From assembly GCA_021817945.1 (NCBI GenBank), contig JAKAFL010000016.1, positions 429-64,428 of the forward strand: a DNA stretch of 64,000 bases, written 5' to 3'. The stretch comes from a bacterium (lineage in GTDB: Bacteria > Verrucomicrobiota > Verrucomicrobiia > Limisphaerales > UBA11358). Below are positions 29,401-49,872 of the stretch, piece by piece; positions within the stretch are counted from its first letter, which is position 1; each line of letters begins with the position of its first letter. A model generated the notes under the pieces. It made no database searches, was not told where the DNA came from, and saw only the letters and a list, made by a program, of their open reading frames with translations. The position numbers were made by a program, and so were the translations under genes.

Positions 29401-29918
29401 GGTCAGAGGACGACAAGCCTCCGGGCACTGAGGGGTTGTTGCTTTTGAAAGGCCCGAATGTCATGGCTGGTTACCTGGGGGAACCGGAAAAAACCCGCGC
29501 CGTGCTCCGGAATGGCTGGTACGCCTCGGGCGACATGGCCACCATGGACGAGGATGGGTTTTTACAAATCACCGGGCGCCTCAGCCGCTACAGCAAAATC
29601 AGCGGGGAAATGGTTCCTCACCTCATGGTGGAAGAAGCGTTGCACGCCGCCGCAGACGCCAAGGAACTTTGTTTCGTGGTCACCAGTCTCCCGGATGAAA
29701 ACCGTGGGGAGCGGTTGGTGGTTTTGCACCGGTTAAATTCCGAGGGGTTTTCGAATTTGATGGACAAACGCAGTCAATGGAACCTGCCCAACCTTTGGAA
29801 GCCCAAACCCATGGATTTTTATTTTGTGGAGCAATTTCCAGTCCTGGGCACGCAAAAGCTCGACCTTCGCGGAATTCGTGTCCTGGCAGAACAGATCAGC
29901 GCCATGGCCAATTCCTGA
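26493..29918 (+). CDS. aas: Triple-fusion protein: MFS lysophospholipid transporter (LplT-like), PlsC-type acyltransferase domain, and acyl-ACP synthetase (Aas-like adenylation domain)
   Basis: The N-terminal roughly 400 aa are multi-TM and MFS-like (FSMAGGYLADRFSKRRV). The middle resembles the Aas acyltransferase (FAEG, IVPVALDG). The C-terminus has AMP-binding motifs: IFSSGSTGDPKGVPLSHYN, GYGATECGP, GDMATMDEDGFLQITGRLSRYSKISGEMV. Confidence 0.8.
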   Translation: MSESEAEDKKMRGFWFLILTQFQGAFSDNTLKWLTTFLITREIINPARQNHLMTVVTVLFTLPFCLFSMAGGYLADRFSKRRVILSVKLFEIMVMSLACYGLWVQKLKVTIFCVLLMGLHSAIFGPSKYSILPELLPEKKLSWGNGILEFGTFIAIISGTVAGGLLCTHFAANPVWSGVLLAALACLGLASAAMITPLPAANPNKAFCWNPFADAWANLKWIKSDRALCLALVGYAYFFAIAALIQLVIVIYARDALDLNDPIATSYLQAATAIGIGVGCLLAGFLSGGKIETGLMPLGGLGLTACAFALGLSPGSFALTALKLSLLGFFGGFYVVPVSAMLQHRPHSDRKGGVQGVANLASWACIGFSALVFSVLSTVFKLTPPEIFTMIGLATLTATVGLLILAPETALRMVLWFVTHSLCRVTVMGRDQIPETGGALFVSNRLSMAGVLALSASTDRAIRFLMAEPSGQSVCHRFLNRILKVIQIPPGAGTTARCLCTAKEAVENGEVVCIFAEGIVLESGGVISLQAGLVQIMSGLQAPIVPVALDGLLPGAGHSGRQGILGGVPRRLPVRLRILFGPSMPSNSSAAMIRKANQELLEKAWPLRRGFMRPLPHEFIRMARRHPRRFCMADSMSGSMGFFQALLKTVFLAKRLKEPWKGQRFVGICLPPSIPAALANHAAHLCGKVPVNLNYTLSPVALQACAHKGGIQTILTSKRFLEKIGMVLPGRLLFIEDIARDPRVLEKGLAFLMAAFAPQRCLGWYVGVRHPAGLDDAATVIFSSGSTGDPKGVPLSHYNLLSNISQMEQVLDVSDVTRFLGILPLFHSFGFTVTLCLPSVCGVGVAFHPNPLDARSIGCLVLRQKVNIILATPGFLQIYLRQLPASDFAAVRQVIAGGEKLPETLAEAFEKHFGIRPQEGYGATECGPAVAVNMMNPHDPAWIQVNGKRGKVGRILPGMAARLADPDNPWSEDDKPPGTEGLLLLKGPNVMAGYLGEPEKTRAVLRNGWYASGDMATMDEDGFLQITGRLSRYSKISGEMVPHLMVEEALHAAADAKELCFVVTSLPDENRGERLVVLHRLNSEGFSNLMDKRSQWNLPNLWKPKPMDFYFVEQFPVLGTQKLDLRGIRVLAEQISAMANS

Positions 29919-30370
29919 TCGAAAGTTTTTTCAAAACCTTGATCCACTTGTCATTCATGGTTTCGTGATGTTTGGAGTGTCTTGGTTTTCCGATTGTTTT
30001 TGGAAACCAAATCGAAGGCGGTGGATTTTCCATCAAAACAGGGTGGCTATCACCGAAAGGGGCCAATAATCCGGCTTGCTATCTGATGGATTTTCGGCTG
30101 ATGGCGCGGAAGGGGGGACACTTTTGGCTTTAATACTGATGAACAGGCTTGATTGGCTCGGTCAGCGCAGATGGGGATTTTTGCGAAAAACAAGGGGTAA
30201 TACGCAGTTTAGTGCGTGGCTTGTCCAAATAAGTGAAATTTTTCACAAACTTTTCTTGCGGGGTGTCCGCCAATGTATTAAATGTTTTCCGCGACAGGGA
30301 TTCGGAGCATTAGTCCTTGTGATTGTTTTAGCGATTTGCCGTGGTTTTTGCCGATTTATCGGCGTTTGAA

Positions 30371-31039
30371 ATGTCAGCAATTTTTCCAAAGTGGACAAAC
30401 TGGCTTCCGTTGGTGTTGGCCTTGGTCGCCGCACTGGCGGGGGGTGCCGTGACCGCGGGAGTGGCCGTTTACGTTACGCCCAAATATTATCGCGTGGGTT
30501 ACCAACCGGTCCAGCCGGTTCCTTTTTCCCACAAGGTGCATGCCGGCCAGTTGGGTCTGGATTGCCGCTATTGCCATAGCAACGTGGATAAATCCTGGGT
30601 GGCAAACATTCCCTCCGCCAGCACCTGCATGAATTGCCACAACCAGGTGCTCAAGGACGACCCACGGCTTGCCATAGTCCGCGAGAGCGCCACCAATAAC
30701 ACCCCAATCCCCTGGGTTCAGATTCACATCGTTCCTGATTACGTTTATTTCAATCATTCCGTCCACGTCAACCGCGGCATCAGTTGCGTGGAATGCCATG
30801 GCCGCGTGGATCAAATGGACACAGTCCGGCAGGCGAAATCCTTGAGCATGAGTTTCTGCCTGGATTGCCATCGCGACCCCGCTGCCCACATTCGTCCAGT
30901 GGACAAGGTCACCGACCTGGGTTGGCAATGGGATTCAGATCCCGCGAAGGCCGCCAAGATGCAGGAAATCAACGGGACAAAGTTTGTTCATGACTGGAAA
31001 GTGGAATCGCTTCAAAGTTGCTCAGCCTGCCATAGATGA
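30371..31039 (+). CDS. actA: Alternative complex III subunit ActA (pentahaem cytochrome c)
   Basis: Five CxxCH motifs are present (CRYCH, CMNCH, CVECH, CLDCH, CSACH) after an N-terminal TM anchor. The ATG is at 30371; the tracked GTG is at 30341. Confidence 0.85.
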   Translation: MSAIFPKWTNWLPLVLALVAALAGGAVTAGVAVYVTPKYYRVGYQPVQPVPFSHKVHAGQLGLDCRYCHSNVDKSWVANIPSASTCMNCHNQVLKDDPRLAIVRESATNNTPIPWVQIHIVPDYVYFNHSVHVNRGISCVECHGRVDQMDTVRQAKSLSMSFCLDCHRDPAAHIRPVDKVTDLGWQWDSDPAKAAKMQEINGTKFVHDWKVESLQSCSACHR

Positions 31040-34000
31040 AAACAATTCGCAAACCTGTCCCCGCTCCCACCACGGGCCGTCGCCATTGGCGAAGCCTTGA
31101 GGAATTGGCCGACACGAAGGAGTTCAAGGAGTGGCTGCATCGCGAATTCCCCTCTGGTGCCAGTGAAATGGCTGAGGGCCAGTCCCGCAGGCATTTTCTG
31201 CAGATCATGTCGGCCTCGTTTGCCCTGGCAGGCATCGCCACCTTGGGGGCTGGGTGCAGGCGTCCCGTCGAGAATCTTGAGCCTTTTGGAAAACAGCCGT
31301 CTGATTATGTGTTTGGCGCCTCCCAGTACTTCGCCACAGCCATGCCACTTCGGTGCGGGGCACAGCCCCTGGTGGTGAAATCGTACGAAGGCAGGCCCAT
31401 CAAGATTGAAGGAAACAACCTTTTTCCTGGCGGAATCGGCGCTACGGATCGCTACGCTCAGGCGTCCATCCTGGACTTGTACGACCCGGACCGGGCCAGG
31501 TTTTATCGCAAGCAAGGGCAGAAAATTTCCAAAGACGAGGCGTTGAGCAGTCTTTCCGCGTTGTCCAGCCGCTTCGCAGGCAATCAGGGGCAGGGACTGG
31601 CCTTCGTGATGGAACAGACAGCATCCCCGTCACGCGATCGTCTTCAGGCGATCCTCGCCAGCCGTTATCCCCAAGCTGAATGGTATGCGGCGGACGCCAT
31701 CCATTCCGTCATTCATCAGGAAGCTGCTTCCAAGGCTTTTGGCCAGCCAGTCCGCCCTGAATTTCATTTTGAAAAAGCCCGCGTCATTCTTTCTCTCGAT
31801 GCCGATTTCCTGGGAGGTGAGGATGACTCAGTGAACCATATTCGCCGGTTTACCTCAGGCCGTAAGCCCGGGGAAACCATGAACCGGCTTTATGTGGTGG
31901 AATCGCTATTCACCCTCACGGGTGCGGCGGCAGACCATCGTCTGCGTCTTGGCGCCAGCCAGGTTTTGGGGGTTGCATCCCAGATTTTGGATCAAATCAA
32001 TGGAAAAGGAACTGCTTCGACTCCATGGGTTGCCGAATGCGCACGTGATTTGGCCGCTAATCCAGGCGCAGCGCTGGTCATGGCCGGCCAAGGTCAACCC
32101 TTGGCGGTTCATCTTTTGGCAAATGCCATCAATTCAGCCTTGGGTGCCGTGGGTAATACCCTTTTGCTCCTATCCGCCCCTGCGCCTTCAGTGCATTTGA
32201 AATCGTTCCGGGATTTGAAACCTTCCGCAGTGGATACCTTGGTCATAGTTGGGGCCAATCCGGCGTATCATTTTAATTGGACCCAAAAGCCCCAAAACGT
32301 GGTACGGCTGGGTTTTTACGAGGATGAAACCTCGGAATTAAGCGATCTTCACATTCCCTCCGCCCACTATCTTGAATCGTGGGGCGATGCCTTGGCGTCC
32401 AACGGTTGCAAGCTGGCTATTCAGCCGCTCATTCAACCTTTATTTGACGGCATGACCGAGCTCGAGTTTTTGGCGAGAATCGCTGGCGAAACCGTCACCA
32501 ACCCCTATTCCATTGTGATGTCCACCTTTGGCGATGATGGGGATTCGTGGAAGCAATTTCTTTTCAACGGATTCGTGGCGGATGCCGCCCCAATGCCCGG
32601 CAATTTGTCACTGGCATTGGGAGTGGATGAATTACAATCTTTGGCCGCCGGGGGCGGCACCCAGGTGCCATCTGCAGACAAGCTGGAAGTGGTTTTCTAC
32701 CGCGATGCCAAGTTGGATGATGGGCGATTTGCCAACAACGGCTGGATGCAGGAGCTGCCGGATCCCATCACTAAAATGACGTGGGACAACGCCGTGCTGA
32801 TGAGCCGTAAAACCGCGCGCGCCTTGGGCGTCGAAAACGGCGATCTTGTGGAAATTTCCTTGAATGGAAGCGCGGTGACCGGACCGGTTTGGACCCAGCC
32901 AGGAATGGCGGATTTTTCGCTGGGGCTGGCTTTGGGTTATGGTCGCAGTCGCGCTGGACGTGTCGGGTCAGGGGTTGGATTCAATGCTTTCACCCTGTTC
33001 AGGGGTCGGTATGTCGAGTCTGGCGCCACCATCCGTAAGACGGGATCATCCTATGTGCTTGCCTGCACTCAGGACCACTGGAGCATGGAAGGTCGTCCCG
33101 CCGTTCGCGAGGCTAATTTGGATGAGTTCAGCCGGAATCCACAATTTGCCAGCGAGGATTTCCATGGCGTGGAGCCGCCAATTGTCCAGTCCTTGTATCC
33201 CAACCCGTTGGACGAGGCCAAAAAAACCGCCCTCCAGCAATGGGGCATGGCGGTGGATTTGAATGCCTGCGTGGGATGCGGCACCTGCGTGGTGGCATGC
33301 CAAAGCGAAAATAACATTCCGATCGTGGGCAAGGATCAGGTCAAACGCGGGCGTGAAATGCACTGGATGCGCATTGACCGTTATTACACCTCGGACCCCG
33401 GGCGCAAGCATAATCCGAGCCTGTTTGATTTTAATGCGGATGAAAACCAGTCAGATCCCAACCAGCAGTTTGCCGAGTGGATTGACGATGTCCAAGCCGT
33501 AAACCAGCCGATGTTGTGCCAACAGTGCGAATCGGCCCCTTGCGAGAGCGTTTGTCCGGTCAATGCCACCGTCCATGATGAGGAAGGTTTGAATGTGATG
33601 GCTTACAACCGTTGCATTGGCACCCGCTATTGCTCGAACAATTGCCCGTACAAAGTCCGGCACTTCAATTTCCTGGATTACAACAAACGCCCCCTGAGCG
33701 AGCTCAAGGGACCGATGTATTCCACCACTCTCACGCATAAAACGAATGGTGAATGGGACCTTCTGCGTTGGTTGAAGGATCCAGACATTGGAATGCGCAC
33801 GGAGGCTGAATGGGACCTCATCAAGCTTTCCAAGAATCCGGATGTGACGGTGCGGATGCGTGGCGTGATGGAAAAATGCACTTATTGCACCCAGCGCATT
33901 GAGCAGGCCAAGATCGCCCAAAAATCCAAGGCGGGAGGGAGCGGGAATGTCCGGCTTACCGAGGCTGATGGCACCATTCCAAAGACCGCGTGCCAGCAGG

Positions 34001-34233
34001 TTTGTCCGGCGGGGGCGATTGTGTTTGGAGACGTGAGCGATCCAGAAAGCACGGTCTCCCGCCAAAAATTATCCCCGCTCAACTACTCGGTTTTGGGGGA
34101 CCTGCTGACCAAGCCGCGGACCACTTACTTGGCCCGGGTGCGCAACCCCAATCCGGCCATGCCTGATTACCATGCGCCTTACAGCACTGAAGAATACGAA
34201 AACGGTCTCTTGACCAGGAAAGGAACCAGCTAA
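31036..34233 (+). CDS. actB: Alternative complex III subunit ActB (molybdopterin-oxidoreductase-like plus 4Fe-4S ferredoxin module)
   Basis: A Tat signal is present (SRRHFLQIMSASFALAGIA). The large N-terminal domain belongs to the Mo-bisPGD family. The C-terminal Fe-S motifs are CVGCGTCVVACQSEN, CQQCESAPCESVCP, CIGTRYCSNNCPYKVRHFN and CQQVCPAGAIVFGD. Confidence 0.9.
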   Translation: MKTIRKPVPAPTTGRRHWRSLEELADTKEFKEWLHREFPSGASEMAEGQSRRHFLQIMSASFALAGIATLGAGCRRPVENLEPFGKQPSDYVFGASQYFATAMPLRCGAQPLVVKSYEGRPIKIEGNNLFPGGIGATDRYAQASILDLYDPDRARFYRKQGQKISKDEALSSLSALSSRFAGNQGQGLAFVMEQTASPSRDRLQAILASRYPQAEWYAADAIHSVIHQEAASKAFGQPVRPEFHFEKARVILSLDADFLGGEDDSVNHIRRFTSGRKPGETMNRLYVVESLFTLTGAAADHRLRLGASQVLGVASQILDQINGKGTASTPWVAECARDLAANPGAALVMAGQGQPLAVHLLANAINSALGAVGNTLLLLSAPAPSVHLKSFRDLKPSAVDTLVIVGANPAYHFNWTQKPQNVVRLGFYEDETSELSDLHIPSAHYLESWGDALASNGCKLAIQPLIQPLFDGMTELEFLARIAGETVTNPYSIVMSTFGDDGDSWKQFLFNGFVADAAPMPGNLSLALGVDELQSLAAGGGTQVPSADKLEVVFYRDAKLDDGRFANNGWMQELPDPITKMTWDNAVLMSRKTARALGVENGDLVEISLNGSAVTGPVWTQPGMADFSLGLALGYGRSRAGRVGSGVGFNAFTLFRGRYVESGATIRKTGSSYVLACTQDHWSMEGRPAVREANLDEFSRNPQFASEDFHGVEPPIVQSLYPNPLDEAKKTALQQWGMAVDLNACVGCGTCVVACQSENNIPIVGKDQVKRGREMHWMRIDRYYTSDPGRKHNPSLFDFNADENQSDPNQQFAEWIDDVQAVNQPMLCQQCESAPCESVCPVNATVHDEEGLNVMAYNRCIGTRYCSNNCPYKVRHFNFLDYNKRPLSELKGPMYSTTLTHKTNGEWDLLRWLKDPDIGMRTEAEWDLIKLSKNPDVTVRMRGVMEKCTYCTQRIEQAKIAQKSKAGGSGNVRLTEADGTIPKTACQQVCPAGAIVFGDVSDPESTVSRQKLSPLNYSVLGDLLTKPRTTYLARVRNPNPAMPDYHAPYSTEEYENGLLTRKGTS

Positions 34234-35672
34234 TGGCCGGCCCAGTTATTTCAGCGGAAGAAATCAAGCGATTGGCCCCCCCGGAGGAATTTAGAGCTTC
34301 CCCGATTGTGGAGGGGTCCAAGGGTTTGGGTTGGCTCACGGACCGGTTGTCTGCCTTTGCCGAGGCCAAGACCCCGATCTGGTGGTGGGTTGCCTTCCTT
34401 CCTGCAGTGTTCTGCGCCGCCGTGGTCTTCCCCATCTGCCTGTTCTATCAGGTTTTCACCGGGGTGGGGGTCTGGGGTAACAACCATCCCGTGATGTGGG
34501 GGCTGGACATTGTCAACTTCATCTGGTGGGTGGGCGTGGCGCATGCCGGCACCTTGATTTCAGCCCTGCTTTTCCTGACCAAGCAAGGCTGGAGAACCAC
34601 AATCGGTCGCATGGCCGAGGCGATGACTGTCTTTTCAGTGGCCATGGCCGGATTGTATCCCGCCATTCACGTGGGTCGCGCCTGGTTTGATTGGTTCATG
34701 TTTCCCATCCCCAATTCCAACGGCCTTTGGCCCCAGTTCCGTTCACCGCTCATGTGGGATGTCTTCGCCGTCAACACCTATCTGGTGGTTTCCACTCTTT
34801 TTTGGTTCATGGGCATGATTCCGGATTTTGCCGTTCTTCGCGACCGTTCGAAGACCCGGTTGCGCAAGGCCATCTTCAGCGCGCTGGCCATGGGTTGGAC
34901 TGGTTCAGCGCGGCATTGGCATAACTACGAAAAAGCCTACACCGTTTTCGCTGGATTGTGCACGCTGCTGGTTTTCACCGTTAGTTCCATCGTCGGTTTG
35001 GATTTCTGCACAGCCCAAATCGCGGGGTGGCATGCCACCATTTTCCCGCTTTATTTTGTGATTGGCGCCGTTTTCTGCGGCTTCGGCATGATGCTCGTTC
35101 TGCTGATTTCCCTTCGCAAATTGTGCCATCTCGAGGATATCATCACCAAAAGCCACATTGACAAGGTGGCCAAGCTGACACTCGTCAGCGGTCTGGTTAT
35201 TGCCTACATCTATTTGATGGAGTTTTTCATTGCCTGGTATAGTGGCGACCCCTATGAACGCTGGGTCTTTGGGCACCGGCTGTTTGGCCATACTTACTGT
35301 GTCATGGGCTGGATTCTCATTGGCGTGAACGTGGTCATGACCCAGTTGTTATGGATAAAAAAGGTTCGTTCCAACCTGGTCCTTTTGTTTATCATCGGCG
35401 TCCTGATCAATATCGGAATGTGGACGGAACGGTTTGTAATCGTAGTGGGATCCTTGTACCAGGATTTCCTGCCGGCCAATTGGGGCAAATATCTTCCCAC
35501 GCGCTGGGATATTGGTTTGTACATAGGCACGCTGGGTGCATTCTTCACGTTGTACCTGCTTTTCGTAAAGTTCCTGCCCATGATAGCAATTTCCGAGGTC
35601 AAAGGTGCCATGCCAGAGGCTGACCCACACCACCCCAGTGGCGGCGCCTTGAAGGAGGCCCATCATGAATGA
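34233..35672 (+). CDS. actC: Alternative complex III subunit ActC (NrfD/PsrC-like quinol-interacting membrane subunit)
   Basis: It is a polytopic membrane protein of NrfD type (WGLDIVNFIWWVGVAHAGTLISA...). Its start overlaps the actB stop by 1 nt. Confidence 0.85.
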   Translation: MAGPVISAEEIKRLAPPEEFRASPIVEGSKGLGWLTDRLSAFAEAKTPIWWWVAFLPAVFCAAVVFPICLFYQVFTGVGVWGNNHPVMWGLDIVNFIWWVGVAHAGTLISALLFLTKQGWRTTIGRMAEAMTVFSVAMAGLYPAIHVGRAWFDWFMFPIPNSNGLWPQFRSPLMWDVFAVNTYLVVSTLFWFMGMIPDFAVLRDRSKTRLRKAIFSALAMGWTGSARHWHNYEKAYTVFAGLCTLLVFTVSSIVGLDFCTAQIAGWHATIFPLYFVIGAVFCGFGMMLVLLISLRKLCHLEDIITKSHIDKVAKLTLVSGLVIAYIYLMEFFIAWYSGDPYERWVFGHRLFGHTYCVMGWILIGVNVVMTQLLWIKKVRSNLVLLFIIGVLINIGMWTERFVIVVGSLYQDFLPANWGKYLPTRWDIGLYIGTLGAFFTLYLLFVKFLPMIAISEVKGAMPEADPHHPSGGALKEAHHE

Positions 35673-36204
35673 TAAACTCTACGGCATCATGGCCGAATTC
35701 GATTCGCCCGCTGCGGTTCTGCGCGCGGCCAAGGCGGTCCGGGACGCTGGCTACCGCCGGTGGGATGTTTTTTCGCCCTTTCCTGTTCATGGCATGGACA
35801 AGGTGATGGGCTTGGGGAATTCTTTGGTGGGTTGGGTGTCTCTTCTCCTTGGCGCAGGCGCTTTCATGTCGGTGGTGGGGCTGATCTGGTACGCGAATGC
35901 CTTTGATTATCCATTGATTGTCGGCGGCAAACCCATGTTCAGCGAACCCATGACCTTTGTTCCTTCCTATATCATGTTGATCATGGGAGGCGCGGTGGGT
36001 TCATTGGTGGGGATGCTGGCATTTAACCAACTCCCGCGCTTGAATCATCCATTGCTCAGCAAACCACGTTTTGAGCTGGCATCGCGTGATAAGTTTGTGC
36101 TCGTGATTGGGGTGAAGGATGACAAGTTCTGCCTCACCAAAACCCGGCAATTGCTTGAAAAAATTGGCGGAAACGCCGTGACTGTTGTGGAGGACGAGGA
36201 CTGA
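35665..36204 (+). CDS. actD: Alternative complex III subunit ActD (DUF3341)
   Basis: The N-terminus LYGIMAEFDSPAAVLRAAKAVRDAGYRRWDVFSPFPVHGMD is followed by two TM helices, which is the typical ActD layout. Confidence 0.8.
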   Translation: MNDKLYGIMAEFDSPAAVLRAAKAVRDAGYRRWDVFSPFPVHGMDKVMGLGNSLVGWVSLLLGAGAFMSVVGLIWYANAFDYPLIVGGKPMFSEPMTFVPSYIMLIMGGAVGSLVGMLAFNQLPRLNHPLLSKPRFELASRDKFVLVIGVKDDKFCLTKTRQLLEKIGGNAVTVVEDED

Positions 36205-36881
36205 TGCGCTACGCCATTTCCATCCTTTTGATAGGGGCCTTCATCGGCGGGGCTGTTGTGGGCATGCTGGGTTTGCCGGGCCGCATTTCCAGCCAGCCGC
36301 CGGTGGAGATTTATTCAGACCGTTACTTCCCAGGCATGGACCGCCAGCCCAAATTGCGGCCCCAAAAGCCCTTCGAGTTTTTCGCCAACGGCGTGAGTTC
36401 GCAGTTGCCCCCGCCGGGCACAGTGGCCCGTTCACCCGGAGTCGCCACCCTCAGCGGGGTAGTTCACCGTTTTGAGGATAATCCTTTCAACACCGGAATG
36501 GTCACCGGCTCGACCAATTTTATTGATGTGAACCCCATGCCAATGACTCAAGCGTTGCTGGAACGCGGACGGCAACGGTTTGATATTTACTGCGCCCCCT
36601 GCCATGGCAGGCTCGGCGATGGCAATGGCATCACCAAGGCCATAGGCGACATGCCAGCGGTGGCCAACCTGCACGATGCCCGGATCATTTCCATGCCCGA
36701 CGGGGAAATCTTCAATACTGTCACCCACGGCAAGGGTCTGATGGGCGCCTATGGTCCCATTGTCCCCGCCGAGGACCGATGGGCTGTGATTGCCTATTTG
36801 CGGGCCCTGCAATTGAGCGATCTTGGGACGACGAACGACCTTGATGCCAGCCAGCAGGCCCTCCTGAACCACACGCCATGA
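36204..36881 (+). CDS. actE: Alternative complex III subunit ActE (monohaem cytochrome c)
   Basis: It has an N-terminal anchor and a single CAPCHGRLGDG haem motif, with a distal Met region (GKGLMGAYG). Confidence 0.8.
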   Translation: MRYAISILLIGAFIGGAVVGMLGLPGRISSQPPVEIYSDRYFPGMDRQPKLRPQKPFEFFANGVSSQLPPPGTVARSPGVATLSGVVHRFEDNPFNTGMVTGSTNFIDVNPMPMTQALLERGRQRFDIYCAPCHGRLGDGNGITKAIGDMPAVANLHDARIISMPDGEIFNTVTHGKGLMGAYGPIVPAEDRWAVIAYLRALQLSDLGTTNDLDASQQALLNHTP

Positions 36882-38137
36882 GTCATTCCCACCATCATCA
36901 TTCCGCCACGCCGCGATTGGATTTGTCCGGCTGGGGTTTTCTTCCGTCATTCCTCATGACGGCGGGAGGTTTGCTTTCCGTGCTGGGCCTGCTTGTCTCG
37001 TGGAAGCATGGTGTTTTGTTTGAATTCGGTTGCTCATGGCTGCTGGCATTCATGTTTTTTTACAGCCTTGCCATTGGTGCCCTTTTCCTGGTGATGATTC
37101 ACCATCTTTCCGGCGCTGCATGGTCCCTGGGACCCCGCCGGTTTTGTGAACACATTGCCTCGCTTCTTGGGTGGCCGCTTGTGCTCATGTTTATTCCCGT
37201 GGGCTTGTTTGGTCATCAGATTTACCAGTGGATGAACTTGGACCCCGCCACCAACAATCTGGTTGCAGCCAAGGCGCCGGTTTTCACCATTCCCGGTTTT
37301 TGGATCACCTCCGGCATCTTTTTTGCATTGCTGTGGTTCCTTTCATCGAGGCTATCATCGCTTTCCATCGAGCAGGATCAGACTGGCGCTCCCTCCTGCA
37401 CCCGGAAAATGAATTTTCATTCGGGCTGGGGCATTGTCGCTCTTTCTCTTCTGCTCACCTTTTCCAGTGTGCTGTGGATGAAAGCGGTTCAATACCAGTT
37501 TTTCTCCTGTATTTATGGCGTGTATTTCTTCTCCGATTGCGCATGGATCGCCCTGGCAACGGTCTATGTGGTTTCCGTGATTCTCTATCGGCAGGGCGCC
37601 TTGTCCCGGGTTTTGCACGAGCACTGTTTCCAAAACATTGCGCTTTTGTTGTTTGGATTCACCTTGTTCTCGGCTTATACGGAGTTTGCGCAGTATTTCG
37701 TGGTCTGGAATGCCAACATGCCTGAGGAAACATTTTGGTACCTGATTCGTGAGCATGGCAATTGGTGGACGCTGGGGTTGGTTCTTATTTTCGGCCATTT
37801 CTTTGTTCCCTTTTTTGTCCTGCTTCCCCTGAAAATCAAAACTAATTTCAAGGTCATTGTTCCGGTGTGCATATTGGTGGCTTTCATGCATGCGCTGGAC
37901 CTCGCCTTCAATATATTCCCTGCTCATCGTTCTGAGGGTTATCATTTGCGCTGGATCTGGCTGCCTGTTGGGGTTTTCATGTTCATGGGCGGTTTTCTGG
38001 CCAATGTTTTCCTGATGCGGTTTCACTCTCACGCGGCCTATCCCCAAAGGGATCCACGCCTGCTGGAGGCCATGGGCATGAACCCGAATTCAATCAATGA
38101 CCTGGCTCCCAACACTCTCGCCAACTCTCAGCCATGA
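36878..38137 (+). CDS. actF: Alternative complex III subunit ActF (second NrfD-like membrane subunit)
   Basis: It is a polytopic membrane protein in the position of ActF, in the canonical actABCDEF order, with a 4-nt overlap on each neighbour. Confidence 0.75.
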   Translation: MSHSHHHHSATPRLDLSGWGFLPSFLMTAGGLLSVLGLLVSWKHGVLFEFGCSWLLAFMFFYSLAIGALFLVMIHHLSGAAWSLGPRRFCEHIASLLGWPLVLMFIPVGLFGHQIYQWMNLDPATNNLVAAKAPVFTIPGFWITSGIFFALLWFLSSRLSSLSIEQDQTGAPSCTRKMNFHSGWGIVALSLLLTFSSVLWMKAVQYQFFSCIYGVYFFSDCAWIALATVYVVSVILYRQGALSRVLHEHCFQNIALLLFGFTLFSAYTEFAQYFVVWNANMPEETFWYLIREHGNWWTLGLVLIFGHFFVPFFVLLPLKIKTNFKVIVPVCILVAFMHALDLAFNIFPAHRSEGYHLRWIWLPVGVFMFMGGFLANVFLMRFHSHAAYPQRDPRLLEAMGMNPNSINDLAPNTLANSQP

Positions 38138-38493
38138 ATCCTGATAATATCAATCGCGCTTCGGGTGCTGTCATCGGTTTGATCGCAGGAAGCGGCTTGT
38201 TTTTGCTGGCTGCTGTGGCCCTTCACGCCTTGGCGCCTGCTCCGGATGTTGATTCCCTCTACGCTGCCAAACGATCGGCATCGCTCGAAAAAATCAGGTC
38301 CACAGAAAATGCCGGCTTAAATTCTCCCGCTTGGATTGATCCCACACGGGGAATTGTTCGTTTGCCTATTCAAACCGCGATGCAGATTCTGGTTTCGGAA
38401 GGCCAGGACGGCGCGGCGGCACGGCAGGACCTCCTGGGCCGGGAGAAAAAAGCTACGGCCCCGGTGGCCGCCCAACCCAATGCTTTCGAATGA
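38134..38493 (+). CDS. Small single-pass membrane protein, operon-internal (function unknown)
   Basis: It has one TM helix (AVIGLIAGSGLFLLAAVALHAL). It is translationally coupled on both sides by 4-nt ATGA overlaps with actF and the CcoN-like gene. Confidence 0.55.
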   Translation: MNPDNINRASGAVIGLIAGSGLFLLAAVALHALAPAPDVDSLYAAKRSASLEKIRSTENAGLNSPAWIDPTRGIVRLPIQTAMQILVSEGQDGAAARQDLLGREKKATAPVAAQPNAFE

Positions 38494-39899
38494 ACTCAAA
38501 CGATATTAAGCCAGTGCCAACCAGCCAGGTTGATGCCTCCTGCCGATTGCCTTTGCTGGCGCTTTTCGGGGGTTCAGCCCTTTGGCTTGTTTTGGGGTTG
38601 TTGCTGGAGTTGACCGCCTCACTCCAGTTTCATGCTCCGGGTATTTTTTCCTGCTGCCCTTGGATGACTTACGGCCGGGTTTTGCCTGCGGCAAATGACT
38701 TGCTGATTTATGGTTTTGCCATTCCCACCGGCCTGGGTGTCATGCTCTGGGTGGTTGCTAGGCTGGGCCAGGTGGAACTCGTTCTGCCGCTGGTTTCCTT
38801 TGCCGGGGCTAATGTCTGGCATTTGGGCGTGTTGGTGGGCACACTGGGCGTTTTATCCGGCCATTCCACAGGTTATGCGTGGTTTGAATATCCCAGGGTG
38901 GCGGCAGCCCTGCTTTTGCCCGCTTTCATGTTGGTGGCCGTCTCCGCCGTGGCCGCCATCGGCCAGCGCCGGATCAGGGATTTGTACCCATCGCATTGGT
39001 TTTTTCTCGCTTCCTTGCTCTGGTTTCCTTGGATTTATTCCACAGCGTTTGTTTTCCTTCTGGTCTGGCCCGTTCGCGGTGTTGCCCAAGCGGTGATTGA
39101 TTGGTGGTTTGCCTCCAATTTAATCGTGGTCTGGCTCTCCTTGGTGGGCTTGGGGATCTCTTTCTACCTCCTGCCCAAGTTCTCAGGTCGTCCGCTGGAA
39201 GGCCGGTTCACTGCCTTGTTTGCTTTCGTCACTCTCTTGTTGTTCGGTTCCTGGCTGGGGATCCCCCAAGGCGCTCCAGTGCCTTTCTGGCTTCCCGCCA
39301 GCAGCATATTGGCGGGACTGCTCTTCAGTGTTCCTGTCTTGGTGGTGGCCATGGTTTGTGCTCGCACGGTTTGCGGAGCCCCCGCTGGTTGCAAAGGCGG
39401 CCCTTTTTGCCAGGTCAAATTCGGCACCGCAGCTTTTGTCCTTTCCGGTATTTGGACCGTGGCCCAAGCCTGCCCGCAATTTGCCCACTCCACCTTGCTT
39501 ACAACGTTTGATCTTGGAAGAATTCACTGGCAGATTTTCGGCTTCTTTGCCATCACGGTGATGGGTGGTTTTTATGAGCTGTTCCCCCGTGTGATGGCCT
39601 CTCCGCTGCCCCTTCCTGGGTTGCCGCGGTTTCAACACTGGCTTTTTATTTCCGGCGCCTTGGTTTTGGCGGCGTCCCTGGCGGTGGCAGGGTTGCAGCA
39701 GCAGTCCGCCGATTTTATCCTGGCCAGGATACTCCCCGCCTTTCGAGCCAGTTCCCTGGGTTGGACCTTGCTGTTTATTGGCAGCCTCATTTTTGCGCTT
39801 AATGTATTCATTATGACCATCGTTTGGGTGGTGGGAATTATTAAAACGGTCATTGGCGCCATCAAGGCGCCATTGGCCGTCGCGGAGGTTAAACCATGA
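38490..39899 (+). CDS. cbb3-type cytochrome oxidase subunit I (CcoN)-like membrane protein, apparently lacking the canonical haem/CuB His ligands
   Basis: It is 469 aa with about 12 TM helices and is collinear with CcoN. PWMTYGRVLPAANDLLIYGF corresponds to canonical PW..FGRLRPLHTNAVIF. DWWFASNLI corresponds to canonical WWYGHNAV. LLPKFSGRPL corresponds to canonical FVPK...RP. Confidence 0.7.
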   Translation: MNSNDIKPVPTSQVDASCRLPLLALFGGSALWLVLGLLLELTASLQFHAPGIFSCCPWMTYGRVLPAANDLLIYGFAIPTGLGVMLWVVARLGQVELVLPLVSFAGANVWHLGVLVGTLGVLSGHSTGYAWFEYPRVAAALLLPAFMLVAVSAVAAIGQRRIRDLYPSHWFFLASLLWFPWIYSTAFVFLLVWPVRGVAQAVIDWWFASNLIVVWLSLVGLGISFYLLPKFSGRPLEGRFTALFAFVTLLLFGSWLGIPQGAPVPFWLPASSILAGLLFSVPVLVVAMVCARTVCGAPAGCKGGPFCQVKFGTAAFVLSGIWTVAQACPQFAHSTLLTTFDLGRIHWQIFGFFAITVMGGFYELFPRVMASPLPLPGLPRFQHWLFISGALVLAASLAVAGLQQQSADFILARILPAFRASSLGWTLLFIGSLIFALNVFIMTIVWVVGIIKTVIGAIKAPLAVAEVKP

Positions 39900-40696
39900 A
39901 GAACGGTTTCTCAGTTTTTTGCGTGGCATTGGCGGCGCTCGGCTTGTCATGGATTGGGTTGGTCCTGGGACCGGTCCTCCAATTGGGCCATGAATCGCTC
40001 ACCACGGTCCTGAATTCCACGGACCCTTACCCCATCCAGCCTGCGGGCGCGGCAACCTTGGGCTTGCAGGTTTACAAAGCCAACGGTTGCGCCGCCTGCC
40101 ACACTGAACAGGTGCAACAGGATGGTGTGGTTTGCAACGTGGTTTTGTCCGCGCCGGGCCTGCACCCGGATGATGTTTCCAATCTCCTCTCCCAGCTTGA
40201 CTTGAATGGTTTGACCGACCAGGAGGCATCCATCGCAGCGGCAAAGATCGCCGCCGTGGGCGGTAAAACGGAAATACGCGTGGCTTCCACGGGTGGTGAC
40301 ATGAATCGTGGGTGGGGCTTGCGCCGCAGCGTCTCCGCTGATTACCTTTACGACCAGCCGGTTCAGTTGGGATCTGTACGCATTGGGCCTGATTTGGCCG
40401 ATATCGGAACCCGCCAGACCGATGCAAAAGCCATTCTGGCCCATTTGTATGCGCCTCAGTCCTGCACTGCGGGTTCGTTGATGCCTTCCTTTAAATTCCT
40501 CTTCGTAACCCGTAAGGTTCAAGGATCACCTTCTCCCGATGCTTTGGCATTGCCGCAGGCATTTGCCCCGCCGGATGGCTTTGAGATTGTACCAACCCAG
40601 GATGCGAAGAATTTAGTGGCATACCTCATGAATCTGCACGTTAATGTGCCCCTTTACGAGGCGCCCTTCACACCCTCTGTCGCCGCAAACAAATGA
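39896..40696 (+). CDS. cbb3-type oxidase subunit II (CcoO)-like monohaem cytochrome c with an internal insertion
   Basis: It has an N-terminal TM helix, the haem motif GCAACHTEQV, and CcoO-like RIGPDLADIGTR and HLYAPQS...GSLMPSF. About 55-60 extra residues lie between the haem motif and the conserved core. Confidence 0.65.
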   Translation: MKNGFSVFCVALAALGLSWIGLVLGPVLQLGHESLTTVLNSTDPYPIQPAGAATLGLQVYKANGCAACHTEQVQQDGVVCNVVLSAPGLHPDDVSNLLSQLDLNGLTDQEASIAAAKIAAVGGKTEIRVASTGGDMNRGWGLRRSVSADYLYDQPVQLGSVRIGPDLADIGTRQTDAKAILAHLYAPQSCTAGSLMPSFKFLFVTRKVQGSPSPDALALPQAFAPPDGFEIVPTQDAKNLVAYLMNLHVNVPLYEAPFTPSVAANK

Positions 40697-41298
40697 AGGA
40701 TCCAGCCCAGTCATCAACTGATCACCAGGAAAACCCACCCTCGGCTTCGGTTTCCACCGTGCCGCTCTGGATATTTGCCCTGACGCTGCTCCTCATTTTT
40801 CTGGGCACCGTTTATTTTGACCACCACAGCGGATGGTTCAATCCGCAGATTTACTCCCCATTTGAAAATGAAGCCCAGTTGGAGGCATACCAGCCCAAGT
40901 CAGGCTCGGCGGCGATGATCGCCCGGGGCAAGCAGGTTTACGAGCAAATCTGCGGCATTTGCCACGGCGTGGATGGCATGGGTAAGCCGGGTCAGGCTCC
41001 GCCCTTGGCTGGCTCGGAGTGGGTGAATGCTTCCAGCTACAACCGGCTGGCTCATATTCCTTTGATGGGCGTCAATGGCGATATCACGGTTGAAGGAAAA
41101 GATTGGAACATGGCCATGGCTGCCATGGGCGCATCTCTCAGCGATGCCGACCTGGCGGCGGTTCTGAGTTATATTCGGAATTCCTGGGGCAATAAAAGCG
41201 CCATGGTCACCCCGGAAGATGTGGCTGGGGTGCGTGCGGCAATTGGGAAAAACCCAGTTCCGATGTCTGCGCAACAGTTGGAGAAAATGCCCCAATAA
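40693..41298 (+). CDS. Membrane-anchored class I monohaem cytochrome c (CcoP-like or electron donor)
   Basis: It has a TM anchor (VPLWIFALTLLLIFLGTVYF) and a single CGICHGVDGMG motif, with a LSYIRNSWGN tail typical of class I c-type domains. Confidence 0.75.
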   Translation: MKDPAQSSTDHQENPPSASVSTVPLWIFALTLLLIFLGTVYFDHHSGWFNPQIYSPFENEAQLEAYQPKSGSAAMIARGKQVYEQICGICHGVDGMGKPGQAPPLAGSEWVNASSYNRLAHIPLMGVNGDITVEGKDWNMAMAAMGASLSDADLAAVLSYIRNSWGNKSAMVTPEDVAGVRAAIGKNPVPMSAQQLEKMPQ

Positions 41299-46945: not shown

Positions 46946-49216
46946 GTGGTTTTGGTGATGTCTGTTGTTGTCATGAAAAACTGGATTTTGAGAATCGTTG
47001 GGGTCCGGGCGTCCGCAAGGTGCATGTGGGCTGGACTTTGTATGGCATTGGTTCTGGCCACCTCTGCAAGCGCAGCGCATACAAGGGTTGAATTAAAATT
47101 GTCCGCCAATTCGGTCCCACCTGGCCAGGTTCAAACGGTTGGATTTCTGATGACGATGGATCCAGGTTGGCATACCTATTGGAAAAATTCAGGGGATTCA
47201 GGCATACCCACTCAAATTCAATGGAACCTGCCTCCCGGTTTTTCCGCTGGTCCAATTGAGTGGCCATTGCCTCTGAAGTTGCCACCTGCATCGGTCACCA
47301 CTTACGCCTACGAGGGAACGACTCTGTTGGAGGTTCCCATCACGGTCGCTTCAAATGTGGCCTCGGGCGTTTACTCTGTTTCTGCCGCAGTTTCCTGGCT
47401 TGAGTGCAAAGACCAATGCATTCCGGGCAGCACGAATATTTCCTTTGACCTGGTTGTGACCAATGAGTTTGTGCCCTCGACACAATTCGATTTGATCCAA
47501 TCCTGGCAAAGCAGGATGCCTGAGACCAGTTCCAACTGGTTGGTTGAGGCGTCATGGCAAACCACCACTAATGCGGACCAACGCTGGCTGGTTCTTCGCG
47601 GTCAGTATCGTGGCCCTGCCGATACCCAGCCCAGAATTGTGGATTTTTATCCCTATCCCGGCGACATTTATGAGGTCGAGACCGCCACCGAAGTGAAAGA
47701 AGGACCTGGATCTGATTTTACCTTGCGCAAAATGGTCACCAGGTTTCAATCGGATTGGCCTGTGCATGTGCCGGGCATTTTGGTTGAAAAAGGCATTGAT
47801 CATGGTTGGTTCCTGAATCCGCAACCCTTGGGGCCGTCTGCCTTGGTGGATGACTCAAATCAAGTCTCTTCCGGTTCCATCCAGTCTGGGAACCTTGCCA
47901 ATATCTCCGCGCCTCCTTTAAGGTTTTCTCCCTGGCGAATGATTCTTTATGCCTTGATTGGAGGCTTGATCTTGAATGTGATGCCATGCGTGTTGCCGGT
48001 GATTGCGCTCAAGATTCTGGGATTTGTGCGCGAAGGAGGAAGCGACCGGCGTCACATCCGGCTTTTGGGATTGGCCTATGTTGCCGGTGTGCTCGTCTCT
48101 TTTCTCGCTCTGGCCTCCATGGTGGTGGGTGTGAAGGCGGCCGGGCATCAAGCTGGTTGGGGAATGCAATTTGGAAGTCCCGTTTTTGTGGTGGCGCTGG
48201 CTACCTTGGTCACCTTGGTGGCCCTGAATTTATTTGGTGTTTTTGAAGTAAGCTTGGGCGGACATGCCATGGATGCGGCAGGCGCCCTGTCTGCGCGCCG
48301 CGGTTTTGCCGGCGCTTTTTTTAACGGGGTCCTTGCCACCACACTCGCCACGCCTTGCACGGCCCCGTTCCTCGCGCCAGCCCTGGGGTTTGCCTTCGCT
48401 CAAGGTTCAGGAATCATTTTTCTGGCTTTCTTCTCCACAGGCCTGGGCCTGGCTTTGCCTTACTTCCTGCTTTCCTGGCAGCCAGCCTGGATCTCTTTCC
48501 TGCCTAAACCCGGGGCATGGATGGAAAAATTCAAAATCGCCATGGGCTTTCCCATGCTGGCCACGGTTATCTGGCTGCTCTATATCGCCTCAGCCGCTTA
48601 TGGCAGGGGCGTGGCGTGGGTGGGCTGCTTTTTGGTTGTCGTGTCTTTTGCCGCCTGGATCTTTGGCGCGTTTTTCCAGCATGGATCCAAGGCCCGCACT
48701 CTTTCACTGCTTTTGGCTTTCGCGGTCCTGATCCTGGGTTATTTCGGCATTCTGGAGAATGCTTTGCACTGGCGCTCGGGTGCTGGTGATGTAAATCCAG
48801 CCACCACCAATATCAATAGTCCTTTGGATTGGAAACCGTGGTCTCCGGAGGCTGTCACCCAAGCCCAGGCCTCTGGACGGCCTGTTCTGGTGGATTTTAC
48901 TGCCGATTGGTGTCTGACTTGTCAGGTGAATAAAAAAACCAGCATCGAGATTCCATTGGTAATCAATGAAATGAAACAGGTGCAGGGCGTGGCCTTGGTG
49001 GCTGATGACACGGCTTTCCCGGTCCGCATCACCGAGGAATTACAGAGATTTGGCCGCGCCGGTGTGCCGCTGGTTCTAGTGTACCCCGGTCACCCTGGCG
49101 CCAACCCCCTGATCCTTCCCGAAATCCTGACGCCATCCCTGGTTTTGGATGCGCTCAAAAAGGCCACCCAATTCGGAAATGACTTGAACAAATCCACCCC
49201 GGCCGCTGTCGAATGA
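46946..49216 (+). CDS. dsbD: Thiol:disulfide interchange protein DsbD family
   Basis: An N-terminal DsbD-alpha-like domain (WLECKDQCIPG) is present. The CcdA-like membrane core has NVMPCVLPVIALK and TPCTAPFLAPALG. The C-terminal thioredoxin domain carries DFTADWCLTCQ. The start is uncertain (46946, 46973 or later). Confidence 0.85.
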   Translation: MVLVMSVVVMKNWILRIVGVRASARCMWAGLCMALVLATSASAAHTRVELKLSANSVPPGQVQTVGFLMTMDPGWHTYWKNSGDSGIPTQIQWNLPPGFSAGPIEWPLPLKLPPASVTTYAYEGTTLLEVPITVASNVASGVYSVSAAVSWLECKDQCIPGSTNISFDLVVTNEFVPSTQFDLIQSWQSRMPETSSNWLVEASWQTTTNADQRWLVLRGQYRGPADTQPRIVDFYPYPGDIYEVETATEVKEGPGSDFTLRKMVTRFQSDWPVHVPGILVEKGIDHGWFLNPQPLGPSALVDDSNQVSSGSIQSGNLANISAPPLRFSPWRMILYALIGGLILNVMPCVLPVIALKILGFVREGGSDRRHIRLLGLAYVAGVLVSFLALASMVVGVKAAGHQAGWGMQFGSPVFVVALATLVTLVALNLFGVFEVSLGGHAMDAAGALSARRGFAGAFFNGVLATTLATPCTAPFLAPALGFAFAQGSGIIFLAFFSTGLGLALPYFLLSWQPAWISFLPKPGAWMEKFKIAMGFPMLATVIWLLYIASAAYGRGVAWVGCFLVVVSFAAWIFGAFFQHGSKARTLSLLLAFAVLILGYFGILENALHWRSGAGDVNPATTNINSPLDWKPWSPEAVTQAQASGRPVLVDFTADWCLTCQVNKKTSIEIPLVINEMKQVQGVALVADDTAFPVRITEELQRFGRAGVPLVLVYPGHPGANPLILPEILTPSLVLDALKKATQFGNDLNKSTPAAVE

Positions 49217-49275
49217 GGCACAGATGGGTTTTCATTTTTATTGAGAGATACACAGCAAACAAACCATATACAGTT

Positions 49276-49872
49276 ATGACAAAGATCATCACCTTAGCCT
49301 CCCTCCTTGGTTTTACCCTGCCGGCCCTCGCGCTGGAAATCGGACAGCCTGCCCCTGATTTTTCCGGCACGGATATTCACGGCAAAACCGTAAATCTAAG
49401 CGATTTCAAGGGGAAAATTGTCGTGGTTGAATCCTATAACTCCGATTGCCCGTTTTGTCACAACCAATATGCCAGCGGGGCGGTTCCTGAATTGCAAAGA
49501 GATCTGGCCGCCAAAGGCGTGGTCTGGTTGTTGGTGGATTCTGTAAATCCCAACAACCCCAGCTTCCGCTCCGCAGGTCAAGCCCAGGAAGAATGGAAAA
49601 AATTAAAAATCAATGCCACGGATTGGATTCAGGATCCAAGTGGCGCCATTGGCCATCTTTATTCCATGAAAACCACCCCCGATGTTTACGTCATCGGCAA
49701 GGATGGAGTGCTGGATTATCAAGGCGCCATGGATGACCGCCCCAAACCATTCGGCGATCCGCGTAAGGCTCATAATTATGTCCGCGCCGCCGTGGATGCG
49801 CTCCTCCAAGGAAAACCGGTGGCTGTCACCCAGACCAAGCCGTATGGATGTGGTGTTCATTACGCGGATTAA
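49276..49872 (+). CDS. Periplasmic thioredoxin-fold redoxin (AhpC/TSA-ResA-like thiol-disulfide oxidoreductase)
   Basis: A signal peptide MTKIITLASLLGFTLPALA starts at 49276. A CPFC active site is present (SYNSDCPFCHNQ). The tracked ORF starts at 49213 and overlaps the dsbD stop by 4 nt, so either start is possible. Confidence 0.75.
   Translation: MTKIITLASLLGFTLPALALEIGQPAPDFSGTDIHGKTVNLSDFKGKIVVVESYNSDCPFCHNQYASGAVPELQRDLAAKGVVWLLVDSVNPNNPSFRSAGQAQEEWKKLKINATDWIQDPSGAIGHLYSMKTTPDVYVIGKDGVLDYQGAMDDRPKPFGDPRKAHNYVRAAVDALLQGKPVAVTQTKPYGCGVHYAD

Follow-up and report, generated by a model that had tools for sequence, protein, structure and literature searches.

A clade of CcoN-like proteins without haem and copper ligands in the Alternative Complex III operons of Verrucomicrobiota

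Introduction

Alternative Complex III (ACIII) forms a supercomplex with cytochrome aa3/caa3 in Flavobacterium johnsoniae (Sun et al. 2018, as cited in PMC8498564 and PMC8552683), and a ‘C-type oxidase’ is encoded downstream of ACIII in Opitutaceae and in methanotrophic Verrucomicrobia, an arrangement that has been read as a possible supercomplex (PMC8498564). The ACIII-adjacent cbb3 oxidase of Verrucomicrobia has been treated as a working high-affinity oxidase (PMC8498564), and a cbb3 oxidase is listed among the aerobic enzymes of Limisphaera (PMC13608581). Here, we describe an ACIII operon in a 64,000-nucleotide stretch of DNA from a bacterium of the Limisphaerales (Verrucomicrobiota; contig JAKAFL010000016.1 of assembly GCA_021817945.1, positions 429 to 64,428), the whole of which we refer to as the window. 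The place of the oxidase subunit I gene is taken in this operon by a CcoN-like open reading frame (ORF) at 38490–39899 on the + strand, and five of the six metal-binding histidines are substituted in its 469-amino acid (aa) product.

Respiratory proteins stripped of their ligands have been reported before. A ‘deranged’ COX1-like protein of Acetobacter, from which all metal ligands are gone, is kept beside ctaB and has been proposed to be structural (Degli Esposti et al. 2023, PMC10715153), and ligand-less ‘deranged’ bc1 complexes occur in Acetobacteraceae as well (PMC10715153). In the haem-copper oxidase (HCO) superfamily at large, a survey found the active-site histidines to be completely conserved in all families but one, gNOR (PMC11214002). 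The window protein appears to belong to a large, old and selected clade of cofactor-less CcoN proteins that is fixed in the ACIII operons of Verrucomicrobiota and descends from a genuine ACIII-linked cbb3 oxidase. This clade breaks the superfamily rule, being deep and widespread, lacking essentially all active-site histidines and yet standing under selection.

Fold and metal ligands of the CcoN-like protein

The window protein matches the Pfam COX1 profile with 92 bits (cutoff 34.8), while its score against TIGR00780, the NCBIfam equivalog model for CcoN, is 67.7 bits at a cutoff of 583. An AlphaFold model built from 44 family members reached a predicted local distance difference test score (pLDDT) of 87 and a predicted template modelling score (pTM) of 0.89. 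Foldseek superimposed this model on chain A of the Pseudomonas stutzeri CcoN structure (3mk7_A) with a TM-score of 0.86 and a root-mean-square deviation of 2.4 Å over 456 columns. With AlphaFold, Foldseek and Pfam COX1 all pointing to a subunit I fold of 12 transmembrane helices, the protein is predicted to have the complete 12-helix fold of CcoN.

The ligand columns were read from a phmmer alignment to P. stutzeri CcoN (3mk7_A; E=4e-14). The haem b ligand H60 corresponds to A68 of the window protein (codon 38691–38693) and the CuB ligand H207 to S209 (39114–39116), in phmmer as well as in hhalign. The stretch from G253 through P259 (39246–39266; phmmer, MAFFT and hhalign) covers the positions of the cross-linked tyrosine Y251, which is replaced by G253, and of the CuB ligands H257 and H258, which are aligned to P259 and a gap by phmmer and to P259-Q260 by hhalign. 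At the sequence H345-V-H347 of P. stutzeri, the window protein reads R344-I345-H346 (39519–39527; phmmer and hhalign), so that the haem b3 ligand H345 is an arginine and H346, in the place of the second haem b ligand H347, is the sole ligand histidine kept. Substitutions have thus removed five of the six metal-binding histidines and the cross-linked tyrosine; the axial histidine pair of low-spin haem b is incomplete, and neither the haem b3 histidine nor the CuB histidine trio nor the tyrosine is found. Judged by these alignments, ligation of haem b, haem b3 or CuB in any known mode should be impossible for this protein.

The same ligand columns were recovered in MAFFT alignments with 120 close and with 130 distant homologues. 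In addition, hhalign against the family of ligand-complete relatives (probability 100, E=1.6e-84, 439 columns, 30% identity) paired A68, S209, G253, P259-Q260, R344 and H346 with the invariant H82, H223, Y267, H273-H274, H361 and H363 of that family. The first-pass annotation of this DNA, made by eye, could have been out of register; this is ruled out by the agreement of phmmer, MAFFT, hhalign and Foldseek, and neither the profile alignments nor the structural alignment to 3MK7 place a histidine in the columns of the lost ligands. Its report of a change from His to Ala in helix 2 and from His to Ser in helix 6 is reproduced as A68 and S209, its count of seven histidines and no HH dipeptide is correct for the 469-aa protein, and its reading that helix 10 keeps at most one histidine agrees with the retention of H346 and the replacement of the haem b3 ligand by R344. 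The broader statement that all canonical ligands had been lost stands for five of the six histidines and the tyrosine but not for H346.

The losses extend beyond the metal sites. Polar residues which we take to form the proton-input pathway of cbb3 (Y223, S240, H243, Y317 and others, reportedly listed by Buschmann and colleagues, that is Buschmann et al. 2010) have been replaced in the family, with the changes Y223F, S240A, H243A, Y317I/L/V and E323M leaving none of these features in place. Given these lost residues, a residual role as a proton channel of the canonical type seems unlikely. The Ca-site residue E122 is usually an alanine, and R57 and R437 (P. stutzeri numbering) are replaced as well.

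Ligand loss across the family

The losses are shared by the closest relatives of the window protein. We refer to its 120 best database matches (54–97% identity) as the close family, and counts of 121 include the window protein itself. Nearly all of the 120 that bear a taxon are Verrucomicrobiota, and NCBI and JGI label them ‘cbb3-type cytochrome c oxidase subunit I’. All or nearly all ligand residues are gone in every one of the 120. In the MAFFT alignment, the H60 column is alanine in 121/121 sequences; the H207 column of the family reads N or D, with S and G the other residues found across the 121 sequences; the Y251 column is glycine in 111/121; the H257 column is proline in 116/121 and the H258 column a gap; and the columns of H345 and H347 are glutamine in 118/121 and 112/121, respectively. 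Because glutamine stands at its column in 112 of 121 sequences, H346 of the window protein is not, by this alignment, a conserved ligand.

More distant relatives were collected by an exhaustive search of 1.84 billion cluster representatives (50% identity), which returned 255 clusters at E<=1e-30. The distant alignment holds the 130 full-length representatives among the best 150 of these clusters (29–49% identity). Only three of the 130 have the full HHYHHHH ligand set; 75 have no histidine at any ligand position and 41 have one, and overall the ligand residues are all or nearly all lost in about 125 of the 130. Close and distant relatives alike show these losses in place of intact orthologues. 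The residues that replace the ligands differ widely between lineages of the ligand-less clade, a variety that fits sites which no longer matter rather than a switch to a new ligand.

Trp, Gly, Pro and Arg make up most of the residues conserved throughout the ligand-less clade, and many of these are common to real CcoN; no alternative His, Cys or Met conserved clade-wide was found in the alignments of this clade. A narrower set shows little or no variation among the 120 closest homologues: C18, C56, C301, C307, C328, H48, H111 and H169, whose codons from C18 to C328 span window positions 38541–39473. According to the CcoN topology and the helix limits of the AlphaFold model, the cytoplasmic side holds C18, H169, C301 and C307, and the periplasmic side holds H48, C56 and C328. 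In the wider ligand-less clade, however, the H111 column is Asn in 116/131 sequences and the H169 column is mostly Gln; C301, C307 and C328 are nearly confined to the subclade of the window protein; and the ligand-complete protein of Telmatocola also has C18 and H48, which makes these two older than the ligand loss. A metal site or a disulfide might be built from the subclade residues; outside the subclade, the cysteines showed no co-occurrence that would signal a disulfide or a Cys3His site. A search for alternative conserved haem ligands found none, the invariant residues of the close family being either specific to the subclade or older than the loss.

Selection on the CcoN-like gene

Compared with a 95%-identical sequence from a Limisphaerales metagenome-assembled genome (MAG; contig L001), the CcoN-like gene of the window shows 61 synonymous and 20 non-synonymous differences, corresponding to a ratio of non-synonymous to synonymous rates (dN/dS) of 0.10. 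In the same pair, the ratio is 0.03–0.05 for the ACIII genes and 0.07 for the CcoO-like gene of the operon. Eight more close pairs from other lineages gave values of 0.05–0.14 for the CcoN-like gene, which is one of the faster-evolving genes of its operon. These ratios indicate that the gene is under somewhat relaxed but real purifying selection.

A dN/dS of 0.05–0.14 excludes a pseudogene, and with low ratios and family-wide losses, pseudogenisation or decay in a single strain was rejected; all 120 closest homologues carry the same losses, and no strain-specific copy with intact close orthologues was seen. The ORF is full-length and intact in 77/80 loci with complete ends and in hundreds of protein clusters. 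Loss of the cofactor residues, retention of the fold, purifying selection and identifiable active homologues together make up the profile of a pseudoenzyme, the inactivity itself being a prediction from sequence.

The operon and its conservation

In the window, the ACIII genes are present in the order ActABCDEF, as judged by Pfam, NCBIfam and CxxCH counts, and like all members of the operon they lie on the + strand. ActA (30341–31039) is a membrane-anchored pentahaem cytochrome c with five CxxCH motifs and matches to Pfam Cytochrome_C7/c3. It is followed by ActB (31036–34233), a molybdopterin-like and Fe-S subunit with a variant twin-arginine translocation (TAT) signal, Fer4 and Molydop_binding matches and a TIGR04519 score above cutoff; by ActC (34233–35672), the NrfD-like, quinol-interacting membrane subunit (PF03916 NrfD, 60.7 bits); by ActD (35665–36204; PF11821 ActD, 177.8 bits); and by ActE (36204–36881), a monohaem cytochrome c with CAPCH at residue 130 (PF13442). 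The second polytopic ACIII membrane subunit, ActF (36878–38137), has no Pfam match and was assigned from its position and size, which are as in related operons. Between ActF and the CcoN-like gene lies orf119 (38134–38493), which encodes a small single-helix membrane protein without a match in Pfam, NCBIfam or PDB; its only homologues are the small ORFs that take the same place in ligand-complete operons.

Downstream of the CcoN-like gene, the operon encodes partners of the cbb3 type. The first is a CcoO-like monohaem cytochrome c of 266 aa with an N-terminal helix (39896–40696; PF02433 FixO, 63 bits), which carries CAACH at residue 65 and a Met motif, ‘GSLMP’. The second is a membrane-anchored monohaem cytochrome c of 201 aa (40693–41298; PF00034 and PF13442) with CGICH at residue 87, which resembles one CcoP domain. 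Canonical CcoP is dihaem; the third subunit here is monohaem. All junctions of the ten-gene string (30341–41298) overlap, six by 4 nucleotides (nt), two by 1 nt and one by 8 nt. The overlap of the orf119 stop with the CcoN-like start can be read directly as ATGA at 38490–38493 and recurs in most related loci.

For a scan of related loci, one genome per GTDB species was used; 162 species had a relative, and the best 80 loci were examined. The gene order ActABCDEF-orf119-CcoN-like-CcoO-like-cytochrome c on one strand is found in 80/80 loci wherever the contig extends, with orf119 present in 80, ActF in 79 and the CcoO-like gene in 77; ActA is conserved upstream in 48 loci, those with contigs long enough to include it. 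Relatives of only about 30% identity (L082 and L086) are embedded in this operon as well. The CxxCH sites are kept in all 73 complete CcoO-like orthologues (one or two motifs each), in which the Met motif is invariant too, and in all 62 complete orthologues of the 201-aa-type cytochrome c, while the CcoN-like proteins contain none. The first-pass annotation had noted intact CxxCH sites in the partner genes and had proposed a pseudo-oxidase scaffold hard-wired to ACIII. The motifs it saw in the window turn out to be invariant in orthologues, and the tie to ACIII gains support from the synteny in 80/80 loci, from its persistence in relatives of about 30% identity and from the overlapping genes.

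Some features vary among these loci. After its CxxCH, the CcoO-like protein contains a poorly conserved insertion of about 50–90 aa (window 40100–40300, about residues 70–135), and its length is about 240–330 aa in the subclade vs 206–255 aa in ligand-complete operons and in L086 and L087, two more distant operons without the ligands. One MAG, CAIMLG01, apparently carries the ligand-less ACIII/CcoN-like operon twice, on separate contigs (L041 and L061), and on L061 a P-type ATPase is encoded about 6 kb downstream. Several ‘binchicken’ MAGs with the verrucomicrobial operon (among L005, L010, L012, L038, L043, L044, L054 and L076) are titled ‘uncultured Bifidobacteriaceae’, and single MAGs among the same records bear the names Methylomirabilota, Pseudomonadales and Rhodospirillales; these titles probably reflect wrong taxonomic labels or faulty binning.

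Origin from ligand-complete ACIII-cbb3 operons

The nearest ligand-complete relatives of the ligand-less proteins are genuine cbb3 oxidases, and most of those examined are encoded in ACIII operons. In the planctomycete Telmatocola sphagniphila (Planctomycetota), ActA-F are followed by a 153-aa protein, FixS, CcoN, CcoO, a cytochrome c and a P-type ATPase. In Opitutaceae TAV1, ActA-F precede a 111-aa protein, an 81-aa protein, CcoN, CcoO and a cytochrome c; orf119 has a homologue in the 111-aa protein (E=1e-10), and the FixS-like protein of Telmatocola has one in the 81-aa protein (E=2e-14). Among the relatives of an Opitutales CcoN, all ligands are present in 118/125 aligned sequences.

The maturation genes of these operons, ccoS/fixS and ccoI/fixI, are not found near the ligand-less operon. 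A tblastn search with the Telmatocola and TAV1 proteins returned no FixS-like gene in the window or in the ligand-less loci, and a P-type ATPase of the Cu type was not found beside the module in the window, although both may lie elsewhere in the genome. Since the stop of orf119 overlaps the start of the CcoN-like gene in most loci, there is no room for a FixS gene at its usual place in the ligand-less operons.

A neighbour-joining tree of representatives, which carries no support values and serves as a rough guide, places ligand-complete sequences near the base of the ligand-less radiation. The simplest history would be that an ACIII-cbb3 operon was ancestral to Planctomycetota and Verrucomicrobiota and that the chemistry was lost in one large verrucomicrobial lineage. 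A partial loss is seen in an Opitutales MAG (P0189; L083:5791-7251), whose CcoN-like protein has the pattern HHAQYHH: the haem b and b3 ligands and one CuB histidine are kept, the CuB histidine pair and the cross-linked tyrosine are replaced, and the FixS-like gene is absent. Its position amid ligand-complete Opitutales sequences suggests that this loss was independent.

Stand-alone, ligand-complete cbb3 operons (CcoN, CcoO, cytochrome c and P-type ATPase) occur at L088:10001-15654 and L089:1209-6862, in MAGs of ‘Verrucomicrobia subdivision 3’, the broad group of the window. These operons have no link to ACIII and adjoin genes for catalase, ferritin and an extracytoplasmic function (ECF) sigma factor.

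Adjacent aa3 oxidases

At two of the ligand-less loci, which belong to separate lineages, the module is followed on the same strand by the genes of an aa3-type oxidase. On L087 (4697-12769; ligand pattern HNANRFI), COX1, COX3, COX4, COX2, CtaA, CtaB and SCO1 come after the module. The L087 sequences were checked for the COX1 and CuA motifs: COX1 carries the canonical WFLAHPEVY, WAHHMY and GHFHYV, and COX2 has the CuA motif and no cytochrome c domain. On L021 (13897-20328), whose CcoN-like protein is 54% identical to that of the window and belongs to its subclade, the module is followed by CtaA, CtaB, COX1 (444 bits), COX3 and COX2, the last again without a cytochrome c domain. An aa3 oxidase without its own haem c requires a cytochrome c donor, which makes the tethered cytochromes of the module obvious candidates.

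A possible role and its alternatives

The ‘cbb3 oxidase’ annotated in these Verrucomicrobia is very probably incapable of O2 reduction. The view, put forward in the first-pass annotation, that the window protein is not an O2-reducing enzyme receives strong support from the predicted effect of the combined losses of ligands, tyrosine, proton pathway, Ca site and CcoS/FixS-like gene. We consider it probable that the protein is a catalytically dead CcoN which has been kept as a membrane platform for two c-type cytochromes and is part of an exit module on ACIII. We infer this scaffold role from the purifying selection, the intact partner cytochromes, the gene order and the conserved periplasmic face of the protein: across the broad clade, the entropies of the periplasmic loops (2.16) and helices (2.21) are alike and those of the cytoplasmic loops higher (2.84), meaning that conservation in the periplasmic loops equals that in the helices and clearly exceeds that in the cytoplasmic loops. 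In real cbb3, CcoO sits on CcoN at the periplasmic loops. The aa3 clusters that follow the module on L087 and L021 lend this role further support.

In such an arrangement, the CcoN-like protein would be free of redox cofactors, the CcoO-like cytochrome would dock on it as its membrane platform, and the 201-aa cytochrome c would stand beside it. Together with orf119, the three would make up a cytochrome c ‘exit module’ attached to ACIII. Electrons could then travel from menaquinol via ActC, ActB, ActA and ActE to the two haems c of the module and on to a separate acceptor, most plausibly an aa3-type oxidase without a cytochrome c domain of its own. An acceptor outside the complex would thus replace the binuclear centre within it.

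Three observations sit less comfortably with a platform of this kind. The non-synonymous rate of the CcoN-like gene is about two to three times that of the ACIII subunits, which fits relaxed constraint and says nothing on function; the subclade-invariant C56, C301, C307, C328, H111 and H169 have no explanation in a scaffold; and no terminal oxidase is encoded near the module in the window or in most loci, so the acceptor would not be adjacent.

It is rather unlikely, yet worth stating, that the operon encodes a distinct and so far unrecognised respiratory complex of Verrucomicrobiota, in which an ex-oxidase would act as an obligatory subunit for docking and coupling, possibly with a new Cys/His metal site or ligands in its former haem pockets, and would route ACIII electrons through the two tethered cytochromes c to aa3 or to other periplasmic reductases. 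Unlikely, too, is a neofunctionalised subunit, whether its gain would be a novel metal or redox site, the binding of a lipid or quinone where the haems once sat, or a part in ion conduction or regulation linked to the turnover of ACIII. Purifying selection would be strong for a mere spacer, and C18, C56, C301, C307, C328, H48, H111 and H169, invariant in the subclade, fall into a cytoplasmic and a periplasmic group. The set is not conserved across the wider ligand-less clade, however, as illustrated by Asn in place of H111 in 116/131 sequences, and two of its members, C18 and H48, were there before the ligands were lost (Telmatocola); the canonical proton-pathway residues have turned hydrophobic, and the cysteines show no pattern of co-occurrence outside the subclade, all of which speaks against a new function.

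That the protein might still be an active haem-copper enzyme, reducing O2 or NO with unconventional cofactor ligands, appears very improbable. The fold is intact, the window protein retains the haem b ligand H346, and the HCO superfamily tolerates some variation at the active site, gNOR having an aspartate for one histidine (PMC11214002). Against this stand the replacement of five of six histidines and the tyrosine by mostly small or non-ligating residues (A, S/N/D, G, P, Q/R), which moreover vary between relatives, with Gln in the H346 column itself in 112/121; the lost proton pathway and Ca site; the missing FixS/CcoS gene and copper ATPase in the window and the ligand-less loci; and a TIGR00780 score of 68 bits at a cutoff of 583. 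A decaying relic, or an assembly or annotation artefact without function, is hardly credible. The gene is among the faster-evolving ones of its operon, and a partial decay has occurred independently in the Opitutales MAG with HHAQYHH; a relic would nonetheless be hard to reconcile with intact full-length ORFs in 77/80 loci with complete ends and in hundreds of protein clusters, a dN/dS of 0.05–0.14, conserved translational coupling, a confident AlphaFold model and a clade that has diverged to about 30% identity while retaining the same operon.

If the clade is inactive, whether or not the inactive CcoN serves as the membrane platform that we favour, the predicted O2 physiology of many Limisphaerales, ‘subdivision 3’ and Verrucomicrobiia genomes would need revision; ccoN is a common marker for microaerobic respiration. 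Should the protein be the docking subunit of a distinct complex, the ‘high-affinity cbb3 oxidase’ of many abundant soil and freshwater Verrucomicrobia, inferred from ccoN-type markers, would not exist. Beyond these practical consequences for annotation, the clade would constitute a natural experiment in which a supercomplex partner was retained for its structure after its chemistry was lost, and the module would be a tractable target for studying how ACIII hands electrons on.

Other features of the window

The window is otherwise an ordinary stretch of verrucomicrobial chromosome, encoding phosphoenolpyruvate (PEP) carboxylase, SMC, ProRS, a secretin and others. No second terminal oxidase, heavy-metal ATPase or copper-handling gene was found in its 64 kb, and both of its P-type ATPases belong to the type II cation pumps rather than to those for heavy metals. 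Directly upstream of the ACIII operon, at 26493–29918, lies a gene for a 1141-aa fusion of a major facilitator superfamily (MFS) transporter with an acyltransferase and an AMP-binding (acyl-activating) domain, which resembles a fused lysophospholipid transporter and acyltransferase/acyl-ACP (acyl carrier protein) synthetase. About 5.6 kb downstream of the operon, at 46946–49872, a DsbD-like thiol:disulfide transporter (756 aa; DsbD_N, DsbD_TM and thioredoxin-like domains) is encoded together with an AhpC/TSA-redoxin protein, a pair that may bear on cytochrome c maturation.

Comparison with known systems

A search of the full-text literature found no ligand-less CcoN clade and no ACIII-attached pseudo-cbb3, subscription papers lying mostly outside its coverage, so that a prior mention is possible. 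The first-pass annotation had suggested that no module of this kind had been described; this agrees with the full-text search for the module as such and is to be qualified by the A-family precedent in Acetobacter, which is a partial one (PMC10715153).

By its fold, the window protein is closest to CcoN of P. stutzeri (3MK7/5DJQ), with 12 helices and the TM-score of 0.86 given above, and by its operon it is closest to the ACIII-linked cbb3 oxidases of Planctomycetota and Opitutales, with which it shares ActABCDEF, a small protein, ccoN, ccoO and a cytochrome c as well as ~440 collinear residues. It differs from canonical CcoN and cbb3 in lacking five of the six histidine ligands, the tyrosine, the proton-pathway residues and the Ca-site glutamate, and from the ligand-complete ACIII-cbb3 operons in having neither a CcoS/FixS-like gene nor an adjacent P-type ATPase. 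Unlike in cbb3, the third subunit is monohaem, the CcoO-like protein has an insertion and the subunit I score falls far below the CcoN equivalog cutoff. Put differently, every cofactor-related feature of CcoN is missing, and only those of the fold and the partners are present. The supercomplex reading for Opitutaceae (PMC8498564) is compatible with the present data, because the ligands of Opitutaceae are intact.

With the F. johnsoniae supercomplex, the locus shares oxidase-type genes directly after ACIII and the idea that the ACIII haems feed a neighbouring complex directly; on L087 and L021, an A-family oxidase cluster belongs to the same string of genes. In contrast to that system, the genes next to those of ACIII here encode, in place of a working oxidase, a C-family subunit I predicted to lack cofactors and two cytochromes c.

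The COX1-like protein of Acetobacter offers the nearest parallel in kind, as a respiratory subunit stripped of its ligands and retained in a conserved gene cluster. That protein, however, is an A-family homologue near ctaB from a single alphaproteobacterial family, whereas the CcoN-like proteins belong to the C-family, are tied to ACIII, have intact cytochrome c partners and comprise well over 100 clusters at 50% identity in Verrucomicrobiota. Finally, the NrfD-like ActC and ActF (PMC8076601), and pseudoenzymes generally, resemble the CcoN-like protein in that a polytopic protein without cofactors may anchor periplasmic electron-transfer subunits; ActC and ActF are not derived from a cofactor-binding enzyme, whereas the CcoN-like protein has an explicit haem-copper enzyme ancestry.

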